Source: Candidatus Zhuqueibacterota bacterium (GTDB lineage Bacteria > Zhuqueibacterota > Zhuqueibacteria > Residuimicrobiales > Oceaniaggregativiventaceae). Taken from it: a stretch of DNA of 64,000 nucleotides. Where the stretch lies: contig WJME01000070.1 of NCBI GenBank assembly GCA_014728115.1, positions 2,448-66,447 on the forward strand, written 5' to 3'. Positions 27,609 to 45,907 of this stretch are shown here, piece by piece. The notes beneath the pieces are model-generated. The model had not been told where the DNA came from. It was given only the letters and a program-made list of their open reading frames with translations, and ran no database searches. The position numbers were made by a program, and so were the translations under genes. How positions within the stretch are numbered: position 1 is the stretch's first letter; each line of letters opens with the position of its first letter.

Positions 27609-30600
27609 TCACCAGATCTGATGATTCTTTTGCATGGCATGGAGAAAATGTCTGGCATTCGGAATGTATTCACTCGTGGGATGCTTGTCCAGCAACTGCT
27701 TGAAATATAGAGCGGAATCTTTGTATTGCTCGATTCTAAAATAGCACTGCCCCAGCATATAGAGTGCATCATCGGTCTTGTATGTGCTGTTTAATTCCAG
27801 CACAGTTTGGAATTTGTCAATTGCCGCGCGGTATGCGTTTTGAGCATGGTGACATTCGCCGATCCAGTAATGACAGTTTACCCACAAGGGATGAGATGGG
27901 ATTTCATCCAAAATCTGTTGCCAGAGAGTATGCGCTTCAGGATAGCGACGTTGCATAAACAGGGAAAGGGCCTGGTTATACAGATCCTGAAACAAGGTAT
28001 CAGATTTATGCGCGTAAAAAAGATCATTGCTCATGGTCTCTATCTCTGCAATTTCCCGATTCAATGCCTCCATCTCGTCTTGTAAACGGTCCAACCATTC
28101 ATCCCAATTGGGCTCACGATCCAGGACAAAATTCAACCCTTTTATGATTTCACCTTCAACAGATGGACGTACCCGCACGATCCGGTAGCGTGGTTTGGAA
28201 CGTAAATCAAGAGATTTCAATTGCAGCGGATCCGGATACACGATAAACGTGCCCGGCTTTAAGCCAAGATAGTAGATATCGCCATTGTAAGGATCACTTT
28301 TGATTTGGTATAACTGATCCCCTCCTAATTCCCGACAATACAGCGTCATCCCTCCTTTACCTTTCAGGCCGTCAAGAGTTTCAATACTGACATTGCCCTG
28401 TATTTCTGCCTGTACGATGACCGGCAAGGGTACGGATTTAAAAGCATTGGGATCCGTAAAAACAGACATAGACGTAAATCGAGGTTTCCAGGCGATATTT
28501 TCCAATCCCAGAGTATTCACTTTGAGAAAATATTCTCTATAGGGTTCAAGACCGGTGATGCGAATCAGGGTATCGGCATCACAATATTCTATACGTCCCC
28601 CGTTGAGTTCAATATCCATACCCAAAACTCTGGGTTCGTTGACATCATGGATATTATTTGCATTGATATCCAGAAAAGGCGACAAGGTGATTGCGGCTCG
28701 CCCGACAGAGCTGATATGATCATAGGTCACGTGTTTTTGCTTACTGTCCAGTCCCAGGGATCCCCTGAGAAATTGAGTATTTACGATTTGTTCTCTGAAT
28801 TGACTCATGCCGCTGCCTGCGAGCATATAGGGAAATTCGTATCGGATGCCGACCTGGGCGGTCAGTGCATCATTTTGCCTGTTTTTTTCCATCTGTAAAT
28901 AAAAATAACCCTTGTGAGCAAACTGGCGTTCAACCGAAATTCCGTATAACAGGGTTTGGTTCTTGGGCCAATTATAGCCATAAAAAGGTCGCAGCAAAAA
29001 TTGTCTCCAGGTTCTGAAAAATAGCTCGAGTCTGGTTACCGTATACTGATCCAATCCCGGGGTTTGATACGAAAATGTCGACAAATGGCTATTGGCTCCC
29101 CAAAAATAGGAAGAGATATCCCATTCCCAATGATTGATATGATACCCGGGCAACATCGAGCGCTGATACTTTAAGCGCATAGTGCTACGATAATCACCTA
29201 CATTAAAAGGCATAAAGAGGGAAAGTTTGAGTTCCTGCAAATTATTTGTGGGAATGGCCTTTTGTGCAGGATTATAGCGGACAAATTCTCCCAGCAGAGT
29301 AGTGTTGGCGCTCAAGGAAACACTGGTATTGACCGATTCCATGACCTGATCGACTTTATTTGCAGAAATAATGATATTATCTTTTATACGAGCTGACAGA
29401 TCGATAAAGGGTGCAAATCCTCCGGGCACCATGCGGCTGAATTCGTACCCTCCGCCCACAGTGAACCAGTCGGCTAGACCGATATTGGTTTGCAATTTAT
29501 AAAAGGGTTCCTCTTTTGGGTTCATAAAGCGAGCCAGAGTCAAGGCATAATTCCATTCACCTGCGGGCAAAAAATGGTAGGGAATGTGAATCCATCGTTC
29601 CAGAGAGCGTTCTTCTCCCCAGGGACCGATAAACTTTAGAGTGACGAGAGTATAGCCATAGCCAATAGGAACGTTCATTTCATAATATCCACTGGCATCC
29701 GCTTTAACAAAATCGACCAAGACCCTGTTCACATACAGTTCGACCATCCAGTTGGGTTGAGTCCGGTCACTCAGTTTAACAGAGGCAAAAGAATGCCGAT
29801 AGCGCGAAGGAGAATTGGTGACATGAACGCCCAGCATGGGTCTGGGAATCAGAGTGCGGGTGTGAATATCGAGCTTGCCCACATATAACTGCCGTAAAAG
29901 AGGATTTTCGTTATTCACATATCGCCAGCGATAACGCTGTTGATTCGACACAGAGGGTGAGCGAGACCGCTGATAGGTAAACAATTCCAGGTCTCCTCCA
30001 GCGATCTCTGCACCAACGGCCGCCTGGAGTGTCTGATCGGAAGGTTTGTCTTTGTATACAGAATTGGCCAGAGACCAGTCCAGAAACGCACCGTCTAGCC
30101 AGGAAGGATTTCGAGGGATATGGACATCCACCTGCGGGGTTCGGGCGTATTGAAGATTCTTCCGCAGCTTTTGTCGTTGCATTTGCCGGATAAGCGGCAA
30201 ATCGACATCCGGGGTCATATCGACGGACAGCGAACGAAAATCGAATTCTGTCTCAAGGCCAAATATTCTCTCCCATGGTTCGAGCGCCAGATAGAGCCGG
30301 CTATTTATGCGGATGAACTGTTGCGGAGATAATGGATAGACTTTGCTTCCCAAAGTGACAGAGCGATTGGGATAATCAATCAGATAGGAATTATTTTCAT
30401 CGATATAAAAGCCGGAAATACTATCCGCAAACACCGAGGGCCTGGCTTTTATGTGAAGGAGTTCAAAAACCTCCATGACATTCAGAAAAACCGTTTCGGA
30501 TGTCAAAATGGCATCAATATCCTGAGCCCCGATATTTTTGACATTTAGGAGCAAAAAAACGTGTTCTGGGGATTCAATTTCTGAGAGTTGCGCAAAAGAT

Positions 30601-30656
30601 GCGATCGACAAAACCCATTGAAGCAGAATCAAAAAGCGCGTGAGAGATCGGTTCAT
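27609..30656 (-). CDS. Fimbrial usher-like outer-membrane protein with a fused C-terminal coiled-coil + TPR (YbgF-like) module
   Basis: Signal peptide MNRSLTRFLILLQWVLSIASFAQ. The plug-like segment is WMVELYVNRVLVDFVKADASGYYEMNVPIGYGYTLVTLKFIGPWGEERS. A long beta-rich barrel region follows. The last 168 aa (27609-28115) read WDEWLDRLQDEMEALNREIAEIE, followed by TPR-like helices (YNQALSLFMQRRYPEAHTLWQQIL, YWIGECHHAQNAYRAAIDKFQTVL, ALYMLGQCYFRIEQYKDSALYFKQLL). The gene is last in the operon after the chaperone-like gene. Confidence 0.65.
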   Translation of the reverse strand: MNRSLTRFLILLQWVLSIASFAQLSEIESPEHVFLLLNVKNIGAQDIDAILTSETVFLNVMEVFELLHIKARPSVFADSISGFYIDENNSYLIDYPNRSVTLGSKVYPLSPQQFIRINSRLYLALEPWERIFGLETEFDFRSLSVDMTPDVDLPLIRQMQRQKLRKNLQYARTPQVDVHIPRNPSWLDGAFLDWSLANSVYKDKPSDQTLQAAVGAEIAGGDLELFTYQRSRSPSVSNQQRYRWRYVNNENPLLRQLYVGKLDIHTRTLIPRPMLGVHVTNSPSRYRHSFASVKLSDRTQPNWMVELYVNRVLVDFVKADASGYYEMNVPIGYGYTLVTLKFIGPWGEERSLERWIHIPYHFLPAGEWNYALTLARFMNPKEEPFYKLQTNIGLADWFTVGGGYEFSRMVPGGFAPFIDLSARIKDNIIISANKVDQVMESVNTSVSLSANTTLLGEFVRYNPAQKAIPTNNLQELKLSLFMPFNVGDYRSTMRLKYQRSMLPGYHINHWEWDISSYFWGANSHLSTFSYQTPGLDQYTVTRLELFFRTWRQFLLRPFYGYNWPKNQTLLYGISVERQFAHKGYFYLQMEKNRQNDALTAQVGIRYEFPYMLAGSGMSQFREQIVNTQFLRGSLGLDSKQKHVTYDHISSVGRAAITLSPFLDINANNIHDVNEPRVLGMDIELNGGRIEYCDADTLIRITGLEPYREYFLKVNTLGLENIAWKPRFTSMSVFTDPNAFKSVPLPVIVQAEIQGNVSIETLDGLKGKGGMTLYCRELGGDQLYQIKSDPYNGDIYYLGLKPGTFIVYPDPLQLKSLDLRSKPRYRIVRVRPSVEGEIIKGLNFVLDREPNWDEWLDRLQDEMEALNREIAEIETMSNDLFYAHKSDTLFQDLYNQALSLFMQRRYPEAHTLWQQILDEIPSHPLWVNCHYWIGECHHAQNAYRAAIDKFQTVLELNSTYKTDDALYMLGQCYFRIEQYKDSALYFKQLLDKHPTSEYIPNARHFLHAMQKNHQIW

Positions 30657-30701
30657 CAGCTCCCTGCACTACCCTATTGATTATGTTTTGATTTGGATCA
30701 A

Positions 30702-31523
30702 TTATGGCCACTTTACAACTGCTTTTGCCAAAATTGTCTTTTCCAGATCGGATTGACTCTTGTAAATGATTATCAATTTACCCGCTGCAGGCATTCCGGA
30801 TGGAAAATCGAGGGGGAGAACAAATTTCCGGAGTCTATTAGGCGTATAAACTGCAACACCGCGCAAATTCGATACGATTCTCTGTTCTCCGGCAAAGTTT
30901 TCATACACGATATCAATATCTCCAAAAGTCGATTTTGTGCCATTGCGATGAATGGTAAAACCGAGTCCGGGAGGCTGGTTGTTCTCTGGTGCGATATACT
31001 GTATATCTGAAATTGATAAATCCACGTTCAGGTCGCCCTTGCGGACAAGGATAGGAATAGCCCATCCAAAAACAGGCTTGAGCTGGATGCTCAGATCCTG
31101 ACTTTGCGAATGCAAAGGCCTGGCTCGTTCATTATCGATAGCTCTGAAATAGAGATGGGAGCGGTATTCTCTGTCTGGTGTAGATCGTGGCATCATCACT
31201 TGCATACGCACGGTTTGGGTTTCATCCGGGGCCAATACGACCTGGCGTGGAAAGAACCGTAAAAACTCGTCTGCGAGGTATTGGCCAGAGTCAGGTTCTT
31301 CGATCTGTTCGAATTGGCCATTTTCGTTCATGCGATAGCGTACTATGGACAAGGCATAACGGGACGTATCCGAACCGATATTCACCAAGGATATCGCCTG
31401 AGTTCGTCGGCTGCCCTCAAAAACCACTCTGGGAGGGGTGATCAACAAGTCTCCCGGAGACTGGGCAAAACTAATTGCGGTAAGAATAAACCCAAGGAAA
31501 AAATAGAGAACAGGCTTGCGCAT
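30702..31523 (-). CDS. PapD-like periplasmic pilus chaperone
   Basis: I prefer the start at ATG 31523 (MRKPVLYFFLGFILTAISFAQS). LLITPPRVVFEGSRRTQAISLVNIGSD and FLRFFPRQVVLAPDETQTVRMQVMMPRSTPDREYRSHLYFRAI mirror the PapD-family pattern (PPlfrL.pg..q.lRi......P.DREslf.l.v..I). Confidence 0.7.
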   Translation of the reverse strand: MRKPVLYFFLGFILTAISFAQSPGDLLITPPRVVFEGSRRTQAISLVNIGSDTSRYALSIVRYRMNENGQFEQIEEPDSGQYLADEFLRFFPRQVVLAPDETQTVRMQVMMPRSTPDREYRSHLYFRAIDNERARPLHSQSQDLSIQLKPVFGWAIPILVRKGDLNVDLSISDIQYIAPENNQPPGLGFTIHRNGTKSTFGDIDIVYENFAGEQRIVSNLRGVAVYTPNRLRKFVLPLDFPSGMPAAGKLIIIYKSQSDLEKTILAKAVVKWP

Positions 31524-31730
31524 AAATATTTCCAAGTGTTTCAGATTGAATGATATTTAGCCAGGGTTGGATGTCAAAACAGAGGTGCCTGGTCAAAATA
31601 TGGATTTATCTGTATAATATCAACCCTTTTCATAAAAGAGAGTGTATCAAGAGCCAATTTTAACTCTGGGTACGGCATGGCCAATAGAGCGAAGCCGTGA
31701 CCTTATCGACTCGAGATACACCCCTCGCCA

Positions 31731-32240
31731 TTAATTATAAGCAAATGTGACCGTAAAGGTACCTGAATAGGTGCCCACTGCCTGATTCGCACCGACATTC
31801 AAGGTAGCTCCTACTTGAACGGTCTGATTACCCGTCCCATCCAGGGTGCCGGTTCCGCTGGGAGTGCTGGTCCAGCTGTCCACGGTCATAGTTTCGCCGG
31901 TACCACCGGTGTTGGTGATCGTGACACTCCCCGGCAATGTGATGGCATAGGTATTGTTGGCACTTCCGCTGACATCAAAAGTGGCGGCCCGATATCCTGT
32001 GCCAAAAGGCTGGAGATCAGCACCTGTTGATGTACGCGTTCCTGACGGATCAACCGTCACCGTTCCGCCGCTCGCTCCAGCGGTCATGGACCCGAATTCC
32101 AGGGTGAGTCCTGCTGTTGCCGTGATCGAACTGGCAACGGTTGCATTTGCGGTGTTGGTCGCATCAGCGGTTGACTGTGCCCAACCGAACGAGATCGAGC
32201 ACAGTACAATAAAGATGAGAACCAACCATCGTTTCCCCAT
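31731..32240 (-). CDS. DUF4402 / spore-coat-protein-U-like secreted pilin subunit
   Basis: Start at ATG 32240 with GGAGG 6 nt upstream (the track ORF extends spuriously to 32588). MGKRWLVLIFIVLCSISFGWAQS is the signal. LTLEFGSMTAGASGGTVTVDPSG...ATFDVSGSANNTYAITLPGSVTITN...VGATLNVGANQAVGTYSGTFTVTFAYN is the DUF4402 pattern. Confidence 0.75.
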   Translation of the reverse strand: MGKRWLVLIFIVLCSISFGWAQSTADATNTANATVASSITATAGLTLEFGSMTAGASGGTVTVDPSGTRTSTGADLQPFGTGYRAATFDVSGSANNTYAITLPGSVTITNTGGTGETMTVDSWTSTPSGTGTLDGTGNQTVQVGATLNVGANQAVGTYSGTFTVTFAYN

Positions 32241-32283
32241 ATGAACCTCCTTTTGTGAGTTGAGTACGTATTCCCCCTGTTGA

Positions 32284-32787
32284 TTAGTTATAGGTAAAAG
32301 TGATGGTAAACGATCCCGAATAGGTTCCTGGCGATTGATTGGGATTGACATGCAGCGTTCCGCCGACAGAAAAATCCGCGGCCCCATTTTTATCCAGTTT
32401 TCGATGCCCATGGGCCCTGTTCCACAAGGGAAATGATGTCCAGGTATCCACTTGCATGGTTTCGGTGCCGCCTTGTCGTTGCAGCAAGACAGTGCCGGGC
32501 ATGACCACATCATAGTGTGCATTGCGCTGACCCGAAAGTTGAAAAAGGGCGGGATGGTATCCCCCCCCGATGGTATGGAGTTCTGCACCCATCACACTCC
32601 GCATTCCGGTTTCAGGATCGATCGTGATGGACCCGCCGGAATTTCCCACTGTAAAGGACCCAAAATTCAAATCCTGAGCAGCGATCGCCACGAGTGCGTT
32701 CCCGATGGTTGCACGAGATGTATTCAGAGTCTGAGCAAAAATGCAGACAGGGAGTAATAATATGTACAGCAGACGACATGCAAACAT
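32284..32787 (-). CDS. DUF4402 / SCPU-like secreted pilin subunit (paralog)
   Basis: I prefer the start at ATG 32787 (MFACRLLYILLLPVCIFAQT). DLNFGSFTVGNSGGSITIDPETG...ALFQLSGQRNAHYDVVMPGTVLLQ...VGGTLHVNPNQSPGTYSGSFTITFTYN follows. It has the same architecture as the downstream paralog. Confidence 0.7.
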   Translation of the reverse strand: MFACRLLYILLLPVCIFAQTLNTSRATIGNALVAIAAQDLNFGSFTVGNSGGSITIDPETGMRSVMGAELHTIGGGYHPALFQLSGQRNAHYDVVMPGTVLLQRQGGTETMQVDTWTSFPLWNRAHGHRKLDKNGAADFSVGGTLHVNPNQSPGTYSGSFTITFTYN

Positions 32788-33282
32788 TCCTGAACGTTCC
32801 CATTTGGGATAGGCAATATACTTTCGCGCTGATATTGGCAAATACCCTGCCACGTTTTATATAAAGACCACAAAACCAAAACAATAATAACAATGACTTA
32901 TGTTAATCTTCGTCTCAGCTAAAAAAGATCACTAAAACAGGATGTCATCATAAAATGACAGATATGGCGAGCGGTAAAAAAATTTGACAGTCAAAAAGGC
33001 ATTTAAAACCAGATATTGCGGTTTTAAAACAAATATAGGAACCTATTGCAGCATGTTCCAGTTTGGCTTTATTTCGCACCGCTTTGACCCTTTGATGATA
33101 ATCCAAGTATACCTCCCTCAATATTTTACAACGGGTCTATTCTTCTAATCTAGCCAGACAAATCGAATCATCCGGCCAAGCCATGGTTACAGGGTCTGGT
33201 CACATGGACTCATTTGCGACCAACACACACCACAAAAAAACGTAAAAAATCAAATAAAATTCGCACGAAAAGCATTATTAAA

Positions 33283-33311
33283 TTGCTATTTTAGCAAAAT
33301 AATTGTACAAT
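33283..33311 (+). promoter_or_regulatory. Sigma-70-like promoter (TTGCTA-17 nt-TACAAT) overlapped by the dyad TTGCTA-TTT-TAGCAA
   Basis: The -35 TTGCTA is at 33283-33288 and the -10 TACAAT is at 33306-33311, with exactly 17 nt between them. The dyad is at 33283-33297. The promoter lies about 70 nt upstream of the Cys-rich peptide ATG. Confidence 0.45.
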
Positions 33312-33380
33312 ACAACTGTGCTCGAGCCAAATAAAAGTTGTTCAAGAATCATGACCCATCATTTTGCTTTGGAGGATATT

Positions 33381-33638
33381 ATGAGAAAAAAAATGATAAT
33401 TGTATTACTGGCCCTTTTAATGTTAACGGCCCATATTCCCGCACTATGGGCGTGCCATTGTTGTCCCAGACTATCGAATATAACAACAGGAGACGACTAT
33501 CATATAATAGATGCCTATGATGAAGGTTTTGGTGGAGGACTAACATTTTATGCTTCAGTGACAAAAAATAGAATAAGACATTTCTGTGTTTACTCTAATA
33601 ACAAAAGATACGTCTGTGAGGTATTAGGATCTTGTTAA
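33381..33638 (+). CDS. 85-aa secreted cysteine-rich peptide
   Basis: ATG 33381 has GGAGG at 33371-33375. Sequence: MRKKMIIVLLALLMLTAHIPALWA / CHCCPRLSNITTGDDYHIIDAYDEGFGGGLTFYASVTKNRIRHFCVYSNNKRYVCEVLGSC. There is a signal peptide and then six Cys, including CHCC at the predicted mature N-terminus and a C-terminal Cys. I recognise no family. Confidence 0.6.
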   Translation: MRKKMIIVLLALLMLTAHIPALWACHCCPRLSNITTGDDYHIIDAYDEGFGGGLTFYASVTKNRIRHFCVYSNNKRYVCEVLGSC

Positions 33639-33645
33639 AATGCTT

Positions 33646-33677
33646 GGAGCCTTTTGCGTGAAACAAAAGGCTCCTTT
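33646..33677 (+). terminator. Hairpin (10-bp perfect stem) with a short T-tract immediately after the peptide gene (terminator/attenuator)
   Basis: GGAGCCTTTT (33646-33655), loop GCGTGAAAC, AAAAGGCTCC (33665-33674), then TTT. It sits between the peptide gene stop (33638) and the next start (33708). Confidence 0.55.
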
Positions 33678-33707
33678 ACCTATCAAAAACATAACAGGGA
33701 ATCCCTC

Positions 33708-34805
33708 ATGCTATTGCAATCGACCGTAAAAACCGCCCTAATATCTTGTTTTATATTAATTCTTACCATAAACTGTAAGTCTAGTAGTAAATATACACTC
33801 TTGGAAGAAAATGGAATCTATCTTTATAAACGGCAGGCTGTAATTGGTGAACTGCTAAAGGAAAGGACTGATCTTACCGGACAAGAAACCCGCCACAGCC
33901 ACAGCATAGGTAATATTACAAATTTGCAAGTTGACTCTTTTAATAACATCTATGGTATAGATACTCATTAAAATAAAATTCTTTCTTTTGACTCAACTGG
34001 TTTGTTTAGGAAGCAATTTTTAAATATCGGGCAAGGTCCGGGAGAAATGACAAAACCATTCCAAATGAGCATTTATAGCGATACGATATGGGTTTCTGAT
34101 TTGAATCAGCAAAAAGTTTGTCTTTTTTCTCTTTCAGGCGAGTTTCTGAAAGAAATTCATTTTGAGCAAAGTTCGCCAGCAACATTTGCAAAGATTGGAA
34201 ATTTTATATATTTGGGCTCTTGGGAGAAAAATAAAATCTTAACTGTATATTCTCTAAAGTCCGAAAAAGAAACGACCAAAATAAACAAGGAAATACTCAA
34301 GGCGGGTCGCGATATTTATGAGACAAGGACTTTATATTTGTCATCTTTTTATGATTCTAACAATCTGGCAATCATTCAACCTCTTTTAGGCACATTGAGG
34401 ATAATTAATCTTTCAGACTATCACACTATTTTTAATTATGATTTTTTTAAACTTGGATTGGAAGGGCTAGGTAAAAATTATATAGAATCTCAGATAAATG
34501 CCGAAATAGTAGGTAAAAATGGTCCGGTAAAACCATATTGGCAATTTATAAACGAAGCATTTACGATAGACAATGAATTTTATATCACATTTTTCATAAA
34601 AGAAAAAAGCATGAATATTCTTGCAGTAAAAATTGATTTGACTAAAGAAAAAATATTCACTCCAATTTTTTCTGACAACATTTTTTCATATGTTTCAACA
34701 TTAGTAAAATTTCATGATTCAAATTCGATTTATTTATATAATCAAAAATATCAACACTTGGAAAAATGGTCAACAATAACCAGAGAATTCAATCATGAAC
34801 AATAA
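33708..34805 (+). pseudogene. 6-bladed beta-propeller lipoprotein (BF3164-like family) interrupted by an in-frame TAA at 33969-33971
   Basis: Track ORFs 33654..33971 and 34002..34805 are in the same frame, and only one stop codon separates them. The read-through sequence is ...NNIYGIDTH*NKILSFDSTGLFRKQFLNIGQGPGEMTKPF..., which is the contiguous IYxxD-x-KIxxFDxxGxFxxxxGxxGQGPGE blade motif of this family. The N-terminus MLLQSTVKTALISCFILILTINC has a lipobox. Confidence 0.65.
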
Positions 34806-35658
34806 TTTATATCTTGCAAGATTTTATCTATATGTGAGCTTGATAATGCTTACAAGCTTTTATCATAACTTTGCACAAGCTCCGCAATATGGGAATGCCG
34901 CTGGGAAGACGCTGAAAAACATGTTTCAATCAAAGACAAACTCAAATATAAACTTAAAAATCGGATATATAAATCAAACAGAAATCAAGAATCAAGAACT
35001 AGACACTTTCTTGACAATTTTATCAAAATGGCAAAGCAATAAATTGGTCATTGCAAAATATGCCTTGTCCTACTTTGATGAATCATACGAAATTTTAAAT
35101 GTAGAACAGCTAGAAGGACTAGGCTCGTTATTGTTCACCTATCCAAAGGAATATTTTTTTTTGCTAGACGAGCAAAATATCATTCGTTATAGCGGTACTC
35201 CTCCTACTTTGAACAATCTATCAGAAATAATAAAAAAATACATCTCTCATGATTTCGCATCACTTGATAAAAAAAGATTATTTGAACTAGTCCTAAAAAA
35301 TCCTTGCAAGCGTCAAATAACTCTGAAACAACTCGTAAAAACCAAAAATGTAGTGTGTGTTTTCTATACCAATTCCTGCACGACTTGCAAAGAGGAATAT
35401 TTGGAAGAATTTTTTGCATTAGTTCAAAAAAGCCAAGCAAAGATCGAACTGGTCTTGATTGCACCAAAAGAGTTAAATAACAACTCAAATTCATTCACAA
35501 GCCTATTTATGGTATATACAATCGATCCAACTAATTATGATCTCTATTCCGCAGGTAATCCCTTGGTTGTGTTATTTAAGGGAGGTAAAATATTTAAGAT
35601 GTTCACGTCAAAACTGGAAATATATTCAGATTTGACAAAATTTCTTAATGCGCTATGA
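34795..35658 (+). CDS. Signal-anchored thioredoxin-fold protein (TlpA-like) with a CTTC active-site motif
   Basis: The N-terminal hydrophobic segment is LARFYLYVSLIMLTSFY. VVCVFYTNSCTTCKEEYLEEFFAL matches the redoxin WCxxC context. It overlaps the upstream gene by 11 nt and the downstream gene by 4 nt. Confidence 0.6.
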   Translation: MNNNLYLARFYLYVSLIMLTSFYHNFAQAPQYGNAAGKTLKNMFQSKTNSNINLKIGYINQTEIKNQELDTFLTILSKWQSNKLVIAKYALSYFDESYEILNVEQLEGLGSLLFTYPKEYFFLLDEQNIIRYSGTPPTLNNLSEIIKKYISHDFASLDKKRLFELVLKNPCKRQITLKQLVKTKNVVCVFYTNSCTTCKEEYLEEFFALVQKSQAKIELVLIAPKELNNNSNSFTSLFMVYTIDPTNYDLYSAGNPLVVLFKGGKIFKMFTSKLEIYSDLTKFLNAL

Positions 35659-36254
35659 ATTGCCAATTCGTAAATGTTATTCTATTACTAGTATTATATA
35701 TGTTTCCGGGCCAAATACAAAAAATGGACACTGAAAATCACTCGATACTAGGAAAATTATCTGGACGAACGATTAGTATTCCATTATTTCAAAAAAGATT
35801 TCGAATTAATCCAAACATAAAATTCGCGCAGGATATACTCAAGCAGAATCAAACTCTTATCATTGAATGCGCAAATAACGCAAACATTTCTCCCAAACTT
35901 CTTGCTGTTACGATTTATTGTGAATGTTATTTCAATCCACCGGAGTTACAGCTTTTAGAAAAGTGTCTCCTGGTATTAGGAGCGCAAATTAATCACTTAC
36001 CGGATTTATCCGTCGGTCCAGCCCAAATTCGCCTCAGTACGGCCTATTCATACTATCAATCCTCCCAAAAAAATCGCAGCTTTCTCGGCCATTTCATTTT
36101 GACAAAAAAAACAACCGCTCTGTTGCTGATTGATGATCAAATGAATATCGAACTCTGTGCTCGTCTTTTACAATTTTATCAGGAATGGGTGTTATTATCT
36201 GCAAAGATCCCACCATCCAAGCAAACTCTAATTGAACATTGTTCAACGTACTAA
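35655..36254 (+). CDS. Secreted protein with a possible lysozyme/lytic-transglycosylase-like core
   Basis: Hydrophobic N-terminus MNCQFVNVILLLVLYMFPG. ISPKLLAVTIYCECYFNPPE...DLSVGPAQIRLSTAY resembles the SLT pattern (catalytic E followed by GxxQI), but the match is loose. Confidence 0.4.
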   Translation: MNCQFVNVILLLVLYMFPGQIQKMDTENHSILGKLSGRTISIPLFQKRFRINPNIKFAQDILKQNQTLIIECANNANISPKLLAVTIYCECYFNPPELQLLEKCLLVLGAQINHLPDLSVGPAQIRLSTAYSYYQSSQKNRSFLGHFILTKKTTALLLIDDQMNIELCARLLQFYQEWVLLSAKIPPSKQTLIEHCSTY

Positions 36255-36417
36255 AACGCAGGAATCACTGCTGATGTGAAATCATACATCGCATATGGAC
36301 ATCTGATTTACCTGTTGTGTGAATTCGAACCGTTTATCCAACAAAACTTTTAGTTTTCCTGAATCTTTTCACACCCTATTCTATCATACTAGTGTACCCA
36401 ATTCCCCGGAGGTTATC

Positions 36418-38871
36418 GTGAAAAAAATACTGATTGTCGGAGGCGTTGCCGGTGGCGCCACCACGGCGGCACGGTTGCGCCGGCGCAATGAAAAAGCCAA
36501 AATTATCATTTTTGAACGGGGCAAATATATTTCCTATGCGAATTGCGGCCTGCCCTATTATATCGGCGGCACCATATCTGACCGCGATAAACTGTTCGTG
36601 CAAACGCCTGAAGGCTTTTCTCAACGCTTTAACCTGGATGTACGGGTACGAAATGAGGTACTGGCCATCGATCGCGAGAAAAAAAGTGTCAAAGTCAAAA
36701 ACCTCGAAACACAAGAGGTATATACGGAATCCTATGATACTCTGGTGCTGTCCCCCGGTGCTGAACCGGTCAAACCTCCGATTCCGGGAATCAACTCGAA
36801 AAACATTTTCACCCTTCGCAATGTACCCGATACCGACCGCATCAAAGAATATCTGGATACTGCCAAGCCCAGGCGGGCGGTCATTGTGGGAGCCGGATTT
36901 ATCGGACTCGAGATGGCCGAGAACCTGCATCGTCAGGGCATCTTTGTCACGATTGTCGAGATGGCCGAACAGGTCATGACGCCCCTGGATTATGAAATGG
37001 CCGCGGCCGTGCACCAGCATCTGCGTACCAAAAATGTAGAGTTTTATCTCAAGGATGCGGTCTCGTCGTTCGGACAGGAAAACGGCAAGCTGTCGGTGCG
37101 GCTGCAAAGCGGACGGGAATTACCCACGGATCTGGTCATCCTCTCTATCGGCGTCAAACCCGAAAGCAAGCTCGCCAGGGACGCCGGTCTGGAGATCGGT
37201 GAAACCGGTGGAATCAAGGTCAACAAACATCTGCAGACCTCTGATCCCCATATCTATGCCGTGGGCGATGCGATTGAATTCAAAAACCCCATCATCAAAA
37301 AACAAATGATCGCTTATCTGGCCGGGCCAAGCAATAAACAAGGCCGTATCGCTGCAGACAATATCATTGACGGCAATGAGCACACCTATCCCGGTACCAT
37401 CGCCACTGCAATTGCAAAGGTGTTCGACCTGACCGTGGCGTCTACTGGTGTTTCGGAAAAGGCGTTACGACAGCACGAGATTCCTTATATTGCTTCGATC
37501 ATTCACGCCTCTTCCCATGCCGGCTATTATCCGGATGCACAGCCAATGACCATCAAAATCCAGTTTTCGCCGAAAAAAGGCCGGCTGCTGGGTGCACAGA
37601 TCGTGGGATCAGAGGGAGTGGACAAGCGGATAGATCTTTTGGCAGCGATCATTAAACAAGACGGGACCATTTATGATCTCGAAGACCTGGAACACGCCTA
37701 TGCCCCACCCTTTTCATCAGCCAAGGACCCGGTCAATCAGGCCGGTTTTGCGGCAGAAAATATTCTGCAGGGACTGGTACACATCGTGCACTGGTACGAT
37801 ATCGTGGAGCGGGACAGTGACCGTGATGTCCTGGTGGATGTGCGAACCCCCCAGGAGATCGAGCTGGGTACAATTGAAGACTCGCTGTTGATTCCCCTTG
37901 ATGAATTACGCGATCGTTTGGAGGAAATTCCAAAAGAAAAGCGGGTGATCATCTATTGTGCGGCAGGTTTGAGAGGCTATCTGGCAGCACGTATTCTAAA
38001 GCAGAATGGATTCGAAAATGTGTTCAATCTTTCAGGCGGATACAAAACCTTTGTGCATGCCACACAAAAGCAGAGCAACGAGGATATCTATGACCGTATC
38101 TATATTCACAAAGACGATGTCATCTATTCAGCCAATCCTGAACTCACCACGAAACACAGCCAGGAATTACCCCTGATAGAGCTGGATGCCAGCGGTTTAC
38201 AGTGCCCCGGTCCGATTGTCAGGTTGCGCGAAGCCCTCACCACGGCCCAGGCATATCAGCGCATCCGCATTACCGCCACAGATCCGGGATTTCGCCACGA
38301 TGTCCAGGCCTGGTGCCATATGACAGGGAATCGATTGCTTTCTCTTGAGGAAAAAGAGGAGCGATTTATTGCTGTGGTGCAAAAATCTCCGATCAGCGAG
38401 GTCAAGAAAGCCTTTGACCAGCGCAATTTTACTCAAATCGTCTTTAGCGACGAGCCTGACAAAGCACTTGCGACCCTGATGCTCGCAAATTCGGCAGCAT
38501 CATCGGGGAAAAAAGTGACTTTGTTTTTCACCTTTTGGGGATTAAATCTTTTGCGAAAGACGTTTAAACCCCATTTTCATGCCGGACGCGACTGGTCGTC
38601 CATGCAATGGCTGCAGGATAAACAAAATGGCAAAAAACAGCTGCAACGATTGGGATTCGATGATGACCTCTCTGCCGATAAAAGAGATCGGAATCCATTG
38701 CAAATCATGTTACAAACCGCCCATAAAAATAATGTTCGATTTGTGGCCTGCCAAATGTCCATGGATATGCTCGGTATCGATCGTTCTGAACTGATCGACG
38801 ACCTCGAAATCAGTGGCATGGCAGCCTATCTCGATATGGCCGACCAGGCTCATGTCAATTTGTTTGTCTAG
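36418..38871 (+). CDS. Four-domain sulfur-trafficking fusion: CoA-disulfide/persulfide reductase + rhodanese + TusA + DsrE-like
   Basis: I chose the GTG start at 36418 (GGAGG 5 nt upstream). KILIVGGVAGGATTAARLRR...SYANCGLPYYIGG is the CoADR/Nox active-site Cys. IIYCAAGLRGYLAARILKQNGF is the rhodanese loop. LDASGLQCPGPIVRL is the TusA CPxP motif. KVTLFFTFWGLNLL...VRFVACQMSMDMLGI is the DsrE/DrsE-like motif. Confidence 0.85.
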   Translation: MKKILIVGGVAGGATTAARLRRRNEKAKIIIFERGKYISYANCGLPYYIGGTISDRDKLFVQTPEGFSQRFNLDVRVRNEVLAIDREKKSVKVKNLETQEVYTESYDTLVLSPGAEPVKPPIPGINSKNIFTLRNVPDTDRIKEYLDTAKPRRAVIVGAGFIGLEMAENLHRQGIFVTIVEMAEQVMTPLDYEMAAAVHQHLRTKNVEFYLKDAVSSFGQENGKLSVRLQSGRELPTDLVILSIGVKPESKLARDAGLEIGETGGIKVNKHLQTSDPHIYAVGDAIEFKNPIIKKQMIAYLAGPSNKQGRIAADNIIDGNEHTYPGTIATAIAKVFDLTVASTGVSEKALRQHEIPYIASIIHASSHAGYYPDAQPMTIKIQFSPKKGRLLGAQIVGSEGVDKRIDLLAAIIKQDGTIYDLEDLEHAYAPPFSSAKDPVNQAGFAAENILQGLVHIVHWYDIVERDSDRDVLVDVRTPQEIELGTIEDSLLIPLDELRDRLEEIPKEKRVIIYCAAGLRGYLAARILKQNGFENVFNLSGGYKTFVHATQKQSNEDIYDRIYIHKDDVIYSANPELTTKHSQELPLIELDASGLQCPGPIVRLREALTTAQAYQRIRITATDPGFRHDVQAWCHMTGNRLLSLEEKEERFIAVVQKSPISEVKKAFDQRNFTQIVFSDEPDKALATLMLANSAASSGKKVTLFFTFWGLNLLRKTFKPHFHAGRDWSSMQWLQDKQNGKKQLQRLGFDDDLSADKRDRNPLQIMLQTAHKNNVRFVACQMSMDMLGIDRSELIDDLEISGMAAYLDMADQAHVNLFV

Positions 38872-39094
38872 CCCGAACCAAAAAGACTCTAGGCTCTAGG
38901 CCCGATGCGCGCTGCACTTTTGTCACACACCCTGCCATATTGACGGTCGGACAATGGCAGAAAAGACAATCATAAATTTTTGCCGCTGATTTTATTATAT
39001 TTACATTCACAAAAAAACTTGCATGATTTTTGCACACCCTGATGCGATTAAAGTGCATAAATCTTACACCTCATAAATACGGAGATTTCTTACA

Positions 39095-41002: not shown

Positions 41003-41039
41003 TCCCCGGCAGAGCCCAAATTAAGGCTAAGAACAAAGC

Positions 41040-41062
41040 GGCCCGGCGGGCTAGGCCGGGCC
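41040..41062 (+). terminator. GC-rich hairpin after htpG
   Basis: GGCCCGGC (41040-41047), a 7-nt loop, then GCCGGGCC (41055-41062). The downstream T-tract is weak (AACTTTGTTG). Confidence 0.5.
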
Positions 41063-41261
41063 AACTTTGTTGTGCACAGTACTGTTGCACCTCAGTACTG
41101 TACGGGGCGTACCATAAGAGAAGATGAGTTATGAAACGGATGTATCATGGCGGATAACGGCGGATGAAACCGTTACCTCGCGTTGTGACTCTTGTCGCAA
41201 ATGGCGGGTGAAACCATAACCGCAAGAGTTTATTCTGACACCATGTGCCGGTGAATAATCA

Positions 41262-41277
41262 GACGCAGTCTTGCGTC
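41262..41277 (-). terminator. Small hairpin after the SusD-like gene
   Basis: GACGCA-GTCT-TGCGTC, 14 nt past the stop of the minus-strand gene. On the transcript strand it is followed by TGATTATTC. Confidence 0.35.
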
Positions 41278-41290
41278 CGACACATCTAGT

Positions 41291-42685
41291 TTAATATGGA
41301 TCGTTGGGATTCCTTACCGGCTGTGCGGACGGTACCGGAATATTCGGATTGGAATTGCGTTCCAATGATCCATAATAAAGTCTGTGCGGAATCTTGACCT
41401 GGGGATCGCCGCCCCCAAAAGGCACCAAAACCGGGCGTCCGGTACGCTTCCAGTCATTATAGACTTCGACATTCAAAAACAGGGCAATATATTTCTCTTC
41501 CATAATGATATCAAACAGAGCCGCTCCCGAAACATCATCGACTGACCCTAAAACACCCTCTTGTAAACTGTATCGCTGTTCCACACCGCGGCGAACCTCA
41601 TCGATTTTCTGCCGAGCCAGGGCCTCATCGCCCATCTCAAAAGCACACTCGGCAATAATGAGTTGAGTTTCTTCCCAGGTCAATAAATCAAAGGATTTAT
41701 CCGGTCGCAAATAATGGGTCAAACTCAGGGTAGAGGCATTGGTATTATTTTCACCAGGATCCGCTCCCACATAATCACCTTCAGCATCGGGTTCAAAATA
41801 GATGTCAAGGCGAGGATCATTACGATCTTTCAGCAGGGTTACCATATAGTTACCGGCCCGAATGTAAGAGTCACGCTGACTCTGAAAATTATACCAGCCA
41901 AATTCTTCGTTGAGATTTCCGGTATGAAAGCTTTTCACACTATTGGCCCAGTCAGAGATACCGCTTTGTGCGGCAGCTATGGCATTGGCATAGTTGCTTC
42001 CATCCACTTCGGCCCAGTGCATATGCAAACGGGCTTTGAGAGAGTAACAGGCCTGTATCCATCTCTGGGCATCGCCAGCAAAAATCACATCATTGGCTGG
42101 ACTATTGGCCATAACCGTTCCCTTTTCACCACTTTGCAAATCTGCAATCGCCTCATCCAAAAGTTGCTGAAGATGAGCATAGATCTCTTCCTGGCTATCC
42201 AGTTTGGGAGTCAACACATCACCACAGGCTTCGGAATAGGGAAAATCCCCCCAAAGGCTCGAGGCCATGCCTATATTGAACGCCTCATAGAACTTTACAA
42301 TACCGGTATAAACACGGTTCCCTGCATCAGTTGTACGACTTTTGAGTTCCTTAATATCGACGAGACCGCCCTCGATAAAGAATCCGTTCATTTCATCTGA
42401 AGTGGTGTTATCGGTAATCAGATATTTGCCATAAGCGGCGGCCTGGCGATCAACACCTGCCATCTGTTGCATCCAGATACTGGTGATACGGGATAAAAGA
42501 TTTTCCTGCTGAAAAAATGTTTTCATCTGCACAGCATTAAATAGCTGGTCAGCAGAAACTTCTACAGCCCGGTTCGGGTCTTGTTGCACCTCTGGATTTT
42601 CCATAAAATTTTTTCCGCATCTGGCATTGAATAAAAGAACCAAAAAAGCTGCAAGGATGAGGAGGATTGTGTGCTTTATCTTCAT
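41291..42685 (-). CDS. SusD/RagB-family outer-membrane lipoprotein
   Basis: 464 aa. The N-terminus MKIKHTILLILAAFLVLLFNARCG has a lipobox. The gene is directly downstream (14-nt gap) of the SusC-like TonB-dependent transporter. The composition is helical and W/Y-rich, typical of SusD-like proteins. Confidence 0.7.
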   Translation of the reverse strand: MKIKHTILLILAAFLVLLFNARCGKNFMENPEVQQDPNRAVEVSADQLFNAVQMKTFFQQENLLSRITSIWMQQMAGVDRQAAAYGKYLITDNTTSDEMNGFFIEGGLVDIKELKSRTTDAGNRVYTGIVKFYEAFNIGMASSLWGDFPYSEACGDVLTPKLDSQEEIYAHLQQLLDEAIADLQSGEKGTVMANSPANDVIFAGDAQRWIQACYSLKARLHMHWAEVDGSNYANAIAAAQSGISDWANSVKSFHTGNLNEEFGWYNFQSQRDSYIRAGNYMVTLLKDRNDPRLDIYFEPDAEGDYVGADPGENNTNASTLSLTHYLRPDKSFDLLTWEETQLIIAECAFEMGDEALARQKIDEVRRGVEQRYSLQEGVLGSVDDVSGAALFDIIMEEKYIALFLNVEVYNDWKRTGRPVLVPFGGGDPQVKIPHRLYYGSLERNSNPNIPVPSAQPVRNPNDPY

Positions 42686-42699
42686 GTCATATCTCCATC

Positions 42700-45600
42700 T
42701 TAATAGTTAAAGCGGAAGGTCAGTATGATCGAGCGCGTGTGAGGATTATTGAAATAATCCAGGCCACGCCAGTTTTCATTACCGGAAATATTGGTTTCGG
42801 GATCGATACCTGAATAATCCGTCCAGGTATAAAGATTCCTGCCGCTCAATCGAATATCGATATCTTCCAGGCCGGTATAATAACTAAGCCTTGGATGGGT
42901 AAACTTGTATGAGACAGATACTTCGCGTAATTTCACATAGCTACCATCTTCGACATAGGGACTATTCGGACCAAAAAAGGCGTTCCCCAGCCCAAAGGCA
43001 TACCAGTTATCCTGATCCAAAAACACACGTGTACCGGCACCTGGCCCTTTACCTTCAAACGTGTGGAGATTACCCCGTCGGGTGACACCTTCCAGATCAG
43101 TACCCTCGACATCGGTTTCGTTATGGATACCAAAATACCGCAGAGCACCCCGGGTGCCGTTATAGACATCGCCTCCTTGTTTGATATCAAACAGAGCCGA
43201 GATGCTGAGTTTCTTGAATAGATGAACGGTATTGCGTATACCGGCGGTCCAGTCGGGATTGGGATTTCCGGTGATTCTCTCTTCCGGATCATAAAGAGGG
43301 AATCCGTCTTCTGCGATATAGAGATCGCCCTTTTCCCATCCGCTATAGGCTTTATCTATATTGACGAGATCCCCTTCAGCGTCCTGTACAGTAGATCCAC
43401 GACCAAAGCGAATAAAATCAGGACCCCGAAAGATACTCATCGGCTGTCCGACTTGAGCATAGCAAGAGGTTTCAAAGCCTTGTAAAAAGATATACTCGGC
43501 ACCATCCAGTTCAACAACACGGTTTTTATTACGAGCCCAGTTTACGCCTACGTCCCACGTCAGAGTCTTGGTCGTCAGAGGTTGCAGATTAAGGCTCACT
43601 TCCAATCCCCGATTGGAGATGATCCCGCCATTTTTGAGCTGTTGCTGATATCCTGTTGAAGGAGCGATGGGCATGGAATAGATCACGTCTTCTGTTCTCG
43701 AGTCATAATACGTAAGGCCTAACCCGATACGATCATTCCAAAATCCCAAATCAATACCGGTTTCCCATTCTTTGGTTCTTTGGGGATTGATCTCATCATT
43801 GCCACGGATATAGCTGCTGTGAAATCCGGAATAACCCCATGCAAAAGGTGAATTTCCGGCATTCGGTGTAATATCGCTATCCGTATAGATCGTTGTACTA
43901 TACGCGGTCTGCCACAAGTAGCCACTTGGATAGGGATCAGGTTGCTGTCCGGCTTCACCATATGCAGCGCGGATTTTGGCAAAACTCAGCCAATTCTTTA
44001 TGCCATAAAAAACCGGTTGCTGGGTGATTTCCCAGGCGCCACTGACCTTGGGGTACCAGTGCCTTTTTTTGCTTTTTCCAAATGTCGATGATCCGTCATT
44101 TCGTAAGGAAGAGCTAAAGAACAACTGATTATAAAGGTCGACAGAAAATTGACCAAAAAAGGATTCATCCCGTACTTTATTCAAACTCGTCTGGTTGCAC
44201 ATTGGAGGTATTATCCAACTGATCGAATCCCGTCGAACCAATGACCTGACCAAAGACCGTAAAGTTACTCAGGCGGCGCTGATTCCATTGGTGGCCAGCG
44301 AGTAAATTGAGTCGCATATCGGCAAAATCCATAAAGCGTGTTGCCTCGGCGGTAAAATGACCATCTGTTTCCACGTAATTAAAAATCTCTCTGGCAATCC
44401 GTCCATCCGCATACATCGAGCTACCTTTAGGAAAAACCGTACGGCGTTCGTCGCTGGAATAGTCATGTCCCAGTGTATAATTGAGGTGAACCCAATCCAC
44501 AGGGTCATAATCCAGTTGCAGATTACCGAACACACGGCCGACCTGTGAGTTATTGGTTTGTTGATTGACCACAAAGAAGGGATTATCATAACCACGTGAT
44601 CCTTCTTCGGTAGTAGGATTTTGCAAGCGATAAGAACGATGAAATCCTTCAGGGGTCAAATAGGGTATATTACTAAAGTCGGGTGGGGTACGCCATGAGC
44701 CCAATAGCAATCCACTGGTATTGGAACCTTTCTGTATACGGTTGGCTGCTACATCTGAATAGGCAAAATTTCCACTTAGTTGAATTTTCTCATTGATCCT
44801 CTGCGAGGCATTCAATCGTACTGAATATTTGTCGTAATTAGAATTGCCTTTTATAAACCCATCATGCTGATAGCGGCCCAATGAGAGATAATAAGTGGTC
44901 CACTCGTTGCCTCCTGATACTGATAAATTGTTTTCGAAAACATGTCCGGTTTGAAACATTTCTTCGGCATGATCATAGACCGGCACAGAAGAGTCGAGTT
45001 TGGGCCCCCAACTCCAGGGAGCAGTGGGATCTGCTATCCCGTCGATGCCCTGTCCCCATCGTGTCTGCAGGTCCGGTAATTGACTTACTGTATCCCATGA
45101 ATAGGAGGTTTTATAAGACAGGCGAATACGTCCGGGTTGACCTTTTTTGGTCGTAATCAGGACGACACCGTTGGCCGCACGGGATCCATAAATCGCACTG
45201 GCAGCCGCCCCCTTGAGAATCTCCAGAGAAGCGATATCTTCGGGATTGAGGTCAGACATGCGATTCATTTCAGTGACGCCGGCATGGCCGATATCCCCAT
45301 CGCTCATAAAAGAAGCATTGTTCACCGGTGATCCATCGATCACAAAAAGGGGTTGCGTACCGCCGGTGATACTGTTAGCTCCGCGAATTCGGATATAAGC
45401 AGCAGCTCCGGGCTCTCCGCTCGCTGTAGAAATCTCTACATTGGCCACCTTGCCTGCCAGCGCACCGACCACATTATTATCATTGCTGTTGACAATCGCG
45501 TCTGCTGAGACTTGCGGAATGGAAACCCCCAATTTTTCCTTTTCGACACCTACGCCAAAACCTGTTACCACAACCTGTTCCATATTCAAAACATCCAGCG

Positions 45601-45907
45601 CAAGGGTAAAATCTTTTTCGATTAAATCCTCCGAGAGTTGAACGGGGATGGCTTGAGATTTGTACCCTATAAAGGTAGCCGTCAGATGAACACTTTGACC
45701 GTTGGCCTTTGAGGATGGAACCACAAAGTCGAATTTACCTTCTGCATCTGTTGCGCTACCCAGCCCCATACTCCGGATCATCACATTGGCGCCGGCTAAA
45801 GGTTCTCCATTTTCATCGTTGACTTGTCCGCGAATCACTATTGCATCTGCAGCCAATAGTGTGCTGACAAAAAAAAGCACAAGAACCGTAACGAGTTTTT
45901 TTACCAT
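42700..45907 (-). pseudogene. SusC/RagA-type TonB-dependent transporter, split into two overlapping ORFs by a frameshift near 44180-44200
   Basis: The N-terminal ORF (44177..45907) has a signal peptide, a CarboxypepD_reg-like segment (IVIRGQVNDENGEPLAGANVMI...DAEGKFDF) and a plug (ITGGTQPLFVIDGSP). The C-terminal ORF (42700..44253) continues the barrel (NKVRDESFFGQFSVDLYNQLFFSSSLRNDGSSTFG) and ends ILTFRFNY. The two parts are contiguous in sense but lie in different frames. It is functional if the shift is a sequencing error. Confidence 0.8.

Follow-up and report, generated by a model that had tools for sequence, protein, structure and literature searches.

The 64,000-nucleotide stretch of contig WJME01000070.1 analyzed here (the window) contains an AT-rich block, or cassette, of four same-strand genes, P1 to P4, over approximately 3.4 kb. 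The best overall explanation of this cassette, held tentatively, was that it is a lineage-restricted AT-rich operon that occurs as alternative alleles at a fixed site and that would encode a disulfide-rich exported peptide (P1) together with its own oxidoreductase (P3). The cassette was compared among related assemblies and contigs, designated by L-numbers, in which three versions were distinguished: V1, in the window and close lineages; V2, in contigs from hypersaline-mat metagenomes; and V3, in L007, the nearest GTDB species representative. The host can be assigned to Bacteroidota from a SusC/SusD pair encoded elsewhere in the window.

A compositionally distinct block of four genes

In 400-nt windows, the GC content fell from about 0.50 to 0.58 at 31.8 to 32.8 kb to 0.25 to 0.38 at approximately 32.8 to 36.3 kb and was again about 0.50 by 36.4 kb, and the only three 1-kb bins of the 64-kb window with a GC content below 0.40 all lay in the block. 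Positions 33000 to 36299 had a GC content of 33.6%, compared to 47.9% in the 3-kb windows outside the island (standard deviation, 2.3%; minimum, 45.0%; z = -6.1), and a tetranucleotide distance from the window average of z = +10.6. The GC content at third codon positions was 0.27 to 0.33 in P1 to P4 versus 0.47 to 0.56 in the flank genes. A first-pass annotation made from the letters alone had described a sharp drop to about 30% GC and had called for sliding-window GC and tetranucleotide analysis; once these were run, the profile was not flat and the drop was real, with "about 30%" being a slight underestimate of the mean.

All four genes are on the plus strand, at 33381 to 33638 (P1), 33708 to 34805 (P2), 34795 to 35658 (P3), and 35655 to 36254 (P4). 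P1 and P2 are separated by a 69-nt gap that contains a stem-loop, P2 and P3 overlap by 11 nt, and P3 and P4 overlap by 4 nt; the first-pass annotation had given the same junctions and had missed an in-frame TAA in P2 and another in P4. Each of the four proteins has a hydrophobic segment at its N terminus and nothing resembling a transmembrane segment further on, consistent with the export signals that had been proposed for all of them. As also reported in that annotation, the block contained no integrase or tRNA and its boundaries had no convincing flanking direct repeats; no Rfam family was found in the block either. A 57-aa open reading frame at 32948 to 33121 on the minus strand, with GGAGG upstream, was considered as a fifth gene and was rejected because a 1-nt indel in an A-run distinguishes the lineages inside it and because it is not conserved in V2.

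Allele exchange at a fixed site

V1 contigs were found in several metagenomes and in one NCBI metagenome-assembled genome. Wherever their flanks were reached, the neighbors were two DUF4402 genes and a chaperone/usher-like pair on one side and, on the other, a gene encoding a CoA-disulfide-reductase/rhodanese/TusA/DsrE fusion followed by HtpG. The cassette was at the same site in every contig spanning both junctions; shorter contigs reach one junction or neither, and L007 reaches only the right-hand junction. All flank-reaching contigs, representing four lineages with V1 and L007 with V3, carried the cassette at this site. The first-pass annotation had called for a check of whether the island is absent from closely related metagenome-assembled genomes; among the flank-reaching contigs, none had an empty site.

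Comparison to L002 revealed a tract of recent exchange. Window and L002 DNA were 98.15% identical from approximately 32950 to 36350 versus 87.8 to 89.5% in the flanks, and the full exchanged tract, with 96 to 100% identity, ran from 32950 to 36540, both ends being approximate. Its left end is intergenic, and on the right, identity decays about 120 to 250 nt into the CoA-disulfide-reductase gene; such an end inside a core gene is what homologous recombination would leave. The synonymous divergence (dS) between the window and L002 was 0.50 to 0.58 in four flank genes and 0.011 to 0.075 in P1 to P4, with 23 synonymous differences at 605 sites over the cassette (dS, approximately 0.04, or about 13 times below the flanks). 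A similar comparison to L006 gave dS values of 0.11 to 0.15 for the flanks and about 0.02 for the cassette. The low dS of the cassette relative to that of its flanks indicated that its ancestor is much more recent than that of the surrounding chromosome. An intrinsically low substitution rate was rejected as the cause, because synonymous sites are saturated between versions (proportion of synonymous differences [pS], 0.60 to 0.83), and assembly chimerism was rejected because the single-nucleotide polymorphism sets of each lineage recur in independent samples (L002, L003, and L004 for one; the window, L006, L107, and L108 for the other). Immediately to the left of the exchanged tract, positions 32701 to 32949, which comprise DUF4402 signal-peptide codons and intergenic DNA, form a hyper-divergent patch of their own, with 97% identity to L107 and only 60% identity to L002.

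L007 provided a second and more distant comparison. Its reductase was 93% identical to that of the window, the next best match being about 60% identical, and an AT-rich segment (GC content, 0.32 to 0.35) again lay 5' of the reductase gene, with flanks of about 85% DNA identity. The P3 protein of L007 was 44% identical to that of the window, with DNA identity of 0.48 to 0.63 up to approximately position 35790; from there, about 140 nt into P4, DNA identity jumped to the flank level of 0.79 to 0.90 and stayed at that level. Between V1 and V3, P4 varied less than any other part of the cassette (66 to 93% protein identity). The flank-level divergence of P4 in L007 argues that P4, at least, has been resident since before the species split and that the P3 side was replaced by a V3 allele. 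The L007 copy of P4 contains a masked N-run, and about 770 nt of the C-terminal part of the reductase/rhodanese/TusA/DsrE gene is missing from L007 (approximately 3108 to 3308, corresponding to window positions 38142 to 38912).

V2 came from samples of Andean/Atacama hypersaline microbial mats and is represented by four short contigs with GC contents of 29 to 35%. On three of them, a P1 homolog is followed by a hairpin and then by a propeller gene whose product is 48% identical to P2 over 163 aa; on the fourth, the final 30 codons of a P3-like gene are present, overlapping by 4 nt a gene for a 40%-identical P4. The downstream flank of the fourth contig is not the reductase gene, which places V2 in another context or another host; downstream of P4 in the V2 contig L106, the GC content was 30%. 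The co-occurrence of the four families elsewhere, by which the first-pass annotation had proposed to judge the cassette, was thus seen in V2, with the same order and junction types, and in V3 only in part.

Together, these comparisons suggest a resident hypervariable locus whose alleles are swapped by homologous recombination, as opposed to a mobile-element insertion. The horizontally acquired cassette that was originally hypothesized did not stand, given the shared site in relatives and the flank-like P4 of L007, and was reworded as an old resident with exchanged alleles. Whatever its function, the locus represents a clean natural case of allele-cassette exchange in which an AT-rich composition is kept without a mobile element, and it cautions against equating AT richness and atypical k-mers with recent foreign insertion.

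Distribution and selective constraint

P1 to P4 are near-orphans. Among 5.8 billion clustered proteins, a word-indexed search with P2 and P3 returned only their own 90% clusters, and P1 was found in its own cluster and in one 56%-identical protein; a full HMMER search of 1.84 billion representatives with P4 returned itself and one 40%-identical protein (V1 and V2 only). Exact look-ups of the P3 and HtpG proteins gave no record, and the cassette had no match in viral contigs, plasmids, or phages (BLAST) or in PHROGs or PADLOC.

The four genes appear to be real and under constraint. Open reading frames of 287 and 365 codons persist in DNA of about 31% GC, and the ratios of nonsynonymous to synonymous divergence (dN/dS) between the window and L002 were approximately 0.07 to 0.10 for P1 and P2. 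Between V1 and V2 or V3, the proportion of nonsynonymous differences (pN) was 0.29 to 0.42 versus a pS of 0.60 to 0.83, with dS saturated. The dN/dS values between V1 lineages were 0.91 for P3 and 0.43 for P4, calculated from only 9 and 13 substitutions, respectively.

The P1 peptide and its control region

The 85-aa peptide with six Cys residues that had been predicted at first was confirmed as P1. Its precursor has an N-terminal signal (MRKKM...ALWA) followed by a 61-aa mature part that starts with CHCC; the Cys residues are at positions 25, 27, 28, 69, 79, and 85, the last three near the C terminus. The V2 homolog is 56% identical, with 20 of 24 residues shared in the signal and 28 of 61 in the mature part, and has all six Cys residues at identical positions, so that a homolog with conserved Cys spacing, as the first-pass annotation had anticipated, does exist. 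The only Pfam lead for family assignment of P1 was a subthreshold match to the lipoprotein signal LPAM_1 (E = 0.09). P1 had no NVEALA match in Pfam, and neither NVEALA nor DUF5128 was mentioned in the literature searched; the association of such propellers with NVEALA peptides that the first-pass annotation had mentioned was not upheld.

A sigma-70-type promoter was predicted at 33283 to 33311 on the plus strand (TTGCTA, 17 nt, TACAAT), and a ribosome-binding site (GGAGGA, 33372 to 33377) lies five bases 5' of the ATG. At the same position, V2 has a perfect TTGACA-17-TATAAT promoter with TG. From the -10 box to the signal-peptide codons (33300 to 33460), V1 and V2 DNAs were 82 to 90% identical, compared to 40 to 68% for the remainder of the cassette, and within P1, pS between V1 and V2 was 0.38 for the signal codons versus 0.69 for the mature codons. 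This block may be a recombination handle or a regulatory element. The 5' leader showed no significant RNA fold. A palindrome covers the -10 box (window positions 33300 to 33316; approximately 268 to 284 in the V2 contig L087); it is perfect in V2, where it reads AATTGTAT-A-ATACAATT, and imperfect in V1, where the arms match at 6 of 8 positions, and it is a candidate operator for a repressor. Directly upstream of the V2 regulatory region, L087 also has a tandem heptamer, (GAGAATT)n, at positions 1 to 55 that is absent from V1.

The stem-loop in the P1-P2 gap (33646 to 33674, plus strand) has 11 bp, a predicted energy of -21.1 kcal/mol, and a z score of -3.7 and is followed by UUUACC. The hairpin that V2 has at the same place (-29.3 kcal/mol; z = -5.1) is unrelated to it in sequence, indicating that the hairpin was kept in structure and not in sequence between V1 and V2. 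The stem-loop is probably a partial terminator or an mRNA stabilizer.

The putative thioredoxin-like protein P3

P3 (287 aa) is N-terminally anchored, and several weak but concordant signals suggest that it has a thioredoxin-like C-terminal domain. V1 P3 scored 18.3 bits against AhpC-TSA (Pfam cutoff, 26 bits) and 17.3 bits against Redoxin (cutoff, 26.6 bits), with E values of 2 to 4e-3; the V3 protein gave 19.5 bits for Redoxin (E = 8.7e-4), also below the cutoff, and the NCBIfam match to StoA_CxxC was weak (E = 0.023). The CxxC motif aligned across versions as CTTC in V1 (35377 to 35388 in the window) and CRTC in V3, and a loop resembling the cis-Pro loop (AGNPLVVLF in the window) was conserved in V1 and V3 as AG(N/E)PL(V/I)xLF..GK. 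The CTTC and the N-terminal anchor of the TlpA-like protein described in the first-pass annotation were therefore present, and its assignment as TlpA-like stayed below the family thresholds. Profile searches of PDB sequences with P1, P3, and P4 returned only matches with E values above 0.1; one of these, a marginal alignment of P3 residues 116 to 147 with the C-terminal half of a thioredoxin-like protein (E = 0.48), hinted at a second thioredoxin-like module, and a degenerate second half at approximately residues 84 to 150 is possible. The single-sequence AlphaFold2 model of P3 had a pLDDT of 36, too low to be usable.

The P2 propeller

P2 is 365 aa long in relatives. The intact L002 allele matched Pfam DUF5128 with 36.4 bits (cutoff, 22.9 bits; E = 4.5e-9), and the C-terminal part of the window P2 and the V2 fragment scored 29.3 and 36.3 bits, respectively; in PDB, P2 matched the NHL domains of TRIM/Thin proteins (E = 4e-10). 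By these matches, P2 is an NHL-type six-bladed beta-propeller. The propeller reading of the first-pass annotation held in this form, and its BF3164-like label did not, as an NCBIfam scan of P2 gave no BF3164 match and only ScyF at an E value of 0.08. Because the Cys in INC after the hydrophobic region is conserved in both V1 and V2, P2 is probably a lipoprotein with a noncanonical lipobox. P2 resembles the DUF5128/NHL propeller lipoproteins of Bacteroidota in passing the DUF5128 cutoff and in having NHL repeats, but it is very remote from them and no NVEALA-type partner was found.

A metagenome scan with the P2 alignment recovered only remote DUF5128 propellers (24 to 42% identity) in unrelated contexts, and no P1-like peptide was found beside them. 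On L102 (positions 1013 to 3120), a distant DUF5128/NHL gene overlaps by 4 nt the gene for a 368-aa MauE/DoxX protein (PF07291; E = 3.6e-24) with eight Cys residues and a CxxC. To judge from these sequences, L102 is an independent tie of the propeller family to thiol-redox proteins.

The lysozyme-like candidate P4

P4 of the window (199 aa) contains the motifs IYCECYFNP (Glu codon, 35922 to 35924), GPAQIRLSTA, and LLIDDQMNIELCARL. By inspection, the motifs across V1 (L002), V2, and V3 are IYCEC(Y/F)FNP, G(P/A)(A/G)QIRLST, L..(D/N)D..NI..CAR, and AY.N.G, and their order matches that of family 1 lytic transglycosylases. V1 P4 had no Pfam match at an E value of 5 or less; V2 P4 (P0010) matched SLT (PF01464) over profile positions 3 to 103 of 117 with 12.9 bits versus a cutoff of 21.3 bits (E = 0.08), and a weak profile match to the type VI secretion system muramidase Tse3 covered the middle motifs (E = 0.18). 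An AlphaFold2 model of the family from a three-sequence alignment had a pLDDT of 38 and was likewise unusable, and a motif screen revealed no SLT proteins among the collected related loci. The order and spacing of the four motifs (IYCEC-FNP with the putative catalytic Glu, GxxQI, LxxDxxNIxxxARL, and AYxNxG) agree with those of family 1 lytic transglycosylases and the goose-type lysozyme fold, and the weak matches cover the whole domain; on the other hand, the scores are subthreshold, a Cys stands where Ser usually follows the Glu, and the window copy lacks the last motif. The muramidase-like assignment suggested at first stays below the family thresholds, and "lysozyme-like" is best treated as a lead, not a result.

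Two nonsense codons in the window copy

Codon 88 of P2 in the window is an in-frame TAA (33969 to 33971). The corresponding codon is TTA (Leu) in L002, L003, L004, L006, L090, and L107, and the V2 propeller also has Leu at this position; the TAA is private to the window among the compared assemblies. Owing to this codon, the window P2 is either a pseudogene or an assembly error. P4 ends in the window at a TAA (36252 to 36254) that is TAT in L002 and L003, in which the frame reads 33 codons further to 232 aa. This TAA is common to four assemblies of the window lineage (the window, L006, L107, and L108). It falls just before the AYxNxG motif, and the codons that formerly ended P4 remain in frame at 36255 to 36353 on the plus strand and encode NAGITADVKSYIAYGHLIYLLCEFEPFIQQNF, the tail with this motif (AYYNAG in L002), which is conserved in L002, V2, and V3. 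The window cassette is decaying, being partly inactivated or, for P2, possibly misassembled. Stop-codon recoding at both TAAs was considered and rejected, because each differs from the sense codon of relatives by a simple T-to-A change, one of the two is private, and the flank genes use standard stops.

Other regions of the window

The region from 27609 to 32853 on the minus strand, which has a normal GC content, encodes two DUF4402 proteins, a 273- to 277-aa protein with no Pfam match, and a 1015-aa TPR protein. This chaperone-usher-like cluster is transcribed divergently relative to the cassette and gave no sign of belonging to it. At 36440 to 36608 on the minus strand, antisense to the FAD-binding N terminus of the CoA-disulfide-reductase, Rfam V_AS7 (a Vibrio antisense RNA) matched with 75 bits versus a gathering score of 90 (E = 2e-13); the match is most likely due to the conserved coding sequence and not to an RNA gene.

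Approximately 8.8 kb after HtpG (window positions 41006 to 49822) is absent from L006, L107, and L007, in which HtpG is followed by sequence matching position 49823 onward. In addition to genes for SusD-like and SusC-like proteins, it encodes a GerE response regulator and a Y_Y_Y/Reg_prop histidine kinase; only this regulator pair is present in L002. The window thus has a second variable region, a locus of the polysaccharide-utilization type. The SusC-like TonB-dependent receptor gene (42700 to 45907, minus strand) appears to be split into two overlapping open reading frames of 576 aa (CarboxypepD_reg and Plug) and 517 aa (no Pfam match), which suggests a frameshift, reflecting either another pseudogene or an assembly error.

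Proposed function and rival explanations

The mechanism that we tentatively favor would operate at a site between the DUF4402 chaperone-usher-like cluster and the CoA-disulfide-reductase/HtpG block of an uncultured Bacteroidota clade of hypersaline mats. There, a sigma-70-type promoter of its own would drive expression of P1 as a small Sec-type precursor, in whose mature part the six-Cys framework is fixed while the remaining sequence diverges rapidly. The stem-loop 3' of P1 would limit read-through into P2, P3, and P4, so that P1 would be the abundant product and P2 to P4 would be made at lower levels by read-through. P3 would form or shuffle the disulfides of P1 and perhaps also those of the conserved Cys beside the putative catalytic Glu of P4, much as the thiol oxidoreductase does in bacteroidetocin loci, in a phylum in which general Dsb machinery is often lacking. 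The product may be a peptide of competition, signaling, or recognition, and a role in competition or recognition would explain its diversification. Whole cassettes move between lineages by homologous recombination via their conserved edges, with no mobile element.

Several points weigh against this mechanism. The activities of all four proteins are deduced from sequence, and the fold assignments of P3 and P4 are below Pfam cutoffs. The P2 propeller and the SLT-like P4 have no explained place in peptide maturation; the cassette contains no transporter or obvious immunity gene and no oxidant or redox partner for P3 (DsbB, VKOR, MauE, or CcdA). P1 may be a lipoprotein that is not released, as the residue right after its hydrophobic region is a conserved Cys, within a lipobox-like LWAC, and lipid anchoring of this Cys25 would leave five Cys residues. 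P4 is broken in the window lineage, and P2 is also broken in the window, with P1 and P3 intact, so that the four genes may not be one obligatory unit. Finally, V2 and V3 are known from fragments only.

A more specific form of the proposal, which we regard as doubtful, is a conotoxin- or defensin-like mode of evolution. The near-invariant promoter, 5' untranslated region, and signal block would then be joined to a rapidly diversifying six-Cys mature peptide that comes with a dedicated foldase, a propeller, and a muramidase-like partner, and cassettes would be swapped between species at one slot, constituting an undescribed transporter-independent system of antagonism or recognition in hypersaline-mat Bacteroidota.

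Among the rival explanations, we considered foremost the possibility, not a likely one, that the cassette encodes an envelope complex. Modeled on methylamine dehydrogenase, the P1 and P2 lipoproteins would form a complex of small subunit and propeller at the surface or in the periplasm, P3 would be its assembly factor, and P4 would remodel peptidoglycan locally, with hypervariability arising from phage or predator pressure and not from toxin diversification. AT-rich loci with alleles replaced between conserved flanks are typical of surface structures. The Cys residues after the hydrophobic regions of P1 (LWAC) and P2 (INC), conserved in V1 and V2, and the weak LPAM_1 match of P1 are consistent with such a complex, as is the overlap on L102 of a DUF5128 propeller gene with that of a MauE/DoxX protein with CxxC, MauE being a general disulfide-forming protein (bioRxiv 10.64898/2026.03.05.709764). 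However, both lipoboxes are noncanonical (Trp at -2 in P1 and Asn at -1 in P2), the number of Cys residues remaining would be odd if Cys25 were lipidated, and the mature P1 lacks Trp, which makes a cofactor of the tryptophan tryptophylquinone (TTQ) type impossible. Moreover, a strong promoter and an attenuator hairpin suggest that P1 is in large excess over P2, unlike in a 1:1 complex.

It is less probable, and indeed quite unlikely, that the cassette is built around a muramidase toxin, with P4 as an exported peptidoglycan-cleaving effector, P1 or P2 as its inhibitor or immunity protein, and P3 folding the Cys-containing partners. Hypervariability, recombination, and AT richness are classic features of toxin/immunity loci, the four SLT-type motifs are kept in P4 of V1, V2, and V3, a subthreshold SLT match extends over the whole profile and another is to Tse3, and the loss of a costly toxin would be in keeping with the truncated P4 of one lineage. 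None of the P4 matches is significant, however, and P4 lacks a secretion or targeting domain; it varies least between V1 and V3, the opposite of what a diversifying effector would do, and the architecture of promoter and hairpin centers on P1, not P4.

Equally improbable is a recent foreign island, a xenologous segment from an AT-rich donor that a phage, plasmid, or integrative element had newly inserted. The strongly atypical composition and the canonical sigma-70 promoter and Shine-Dalgarno site of P1 would be expected of such an island, and an AT-rich lineage may carry a relative of the cassette, since V2 contigs are AT rich outside it too (30% GC in L106). This reading is opposed by the presence of the cassette at the same site in all flank-reaching contigs, by most of P4 in L007 being as diverged as the flanks, by the identity tract ending inside a neighboring core gene, and by the lack of an integrase, tRNA, repeats, or any phage, plasmid, or viral match. 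That the family is a nonfunctional relic, decaying junk DNA with open reading frames persisting by chance, is very improbable: the two nonsense codons in the window and the elevated dN/dS values of P3 and P4 point that way, but long open reading frames are intact over three versions at saturated synonymous divergence, the proteins are 40 to 56% identical, and their motifs and Cys residues are conserved, as are the promoter, ribosome-binding site, and hairpin.

Comparison with known systems

In methylamine dehydrogenase maturation, as in the cassette, a small exported Cys-rich polypeptide (MauA) is found together with a propeller (MauB) and a membrane-anchored CxxC thioredoxin-like helper (MauD). 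The MauB propeller is seven bladed, whereas P2 is a six-bladed NHL/DUF5128 propeller; in addition, the mature P1 has no Trp for TTQ, MauE is missing from the cassette, and the cassette proteins showed no sequence similarity to Mau proteins. The sublancin operon of Bacillus prophage SPbeta (sunA-sunT-bdbA-sunS-bdbB) is a horizontally carried locus in which an antimicrobial peptide with disulfides is encoded beside dedicated thiol-disulfide oxidoreductases. It has no homology to the cassette and differs from it in being Gram positive and prophage borne and in encoding a DsbB-like oxidant, an ABC transporter, and a glycosyltransferase, all of which the cassette lacks.

The closest likeness is to bacteroidetocins, the class IIf bacteriocins of Bacteroidetes, in that both have a compact four-gene region, a small Cys-containing peptide with its own thiol oxidoreductase, and variable flanks or alleles. 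The bacteroidetocin region comprises genes for a four-Cys peptide, a thiol oxidoreductase, a protein with five transmembrane segments, and an ABC transporter/peptidase; the toxin is fully active only with the oxidoreductase, which presumably forms the disulfides of the peptide because Bacteroides lacks general disulfide (Dsb) machinery according to the authors of that study (PMC6671954). These regions are a precedent in the same phylum for the pairing of a peptide with its own thiol oxidoreductase that the first-pass annotation had proposed. The 15-aa double-glycine leader, the peptidase-domain ABC transporter, and the five-transmembrane protein are all absent from the cassette, and nothing in bacteroidetocin regions corresponds to the propeller or the SLT-like protein; P1 differs in its Sec-type (possibly lipoprotein) signal, in having six Cys residues and not four, and in showing no detected similarity. 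The cassette thus shares only the logic of peptide plus oxidoreductase with a bacteroidetocin-type region and fails its other defining features. Because P1 to P4 are essentially orphans, any biochemical result on them would be new. If the proposal is correct, the principle of a disulfide-bonded antagonistic peptide with its own thiol oxidoreductase, in a host devoid of general Dsb machinery, would extend from gut Bacteroidales to uncultured environmental Bacteroidota, in an architecture that differs from the gut systems in its Sec export and in its propeller and lysozyme-like partners.

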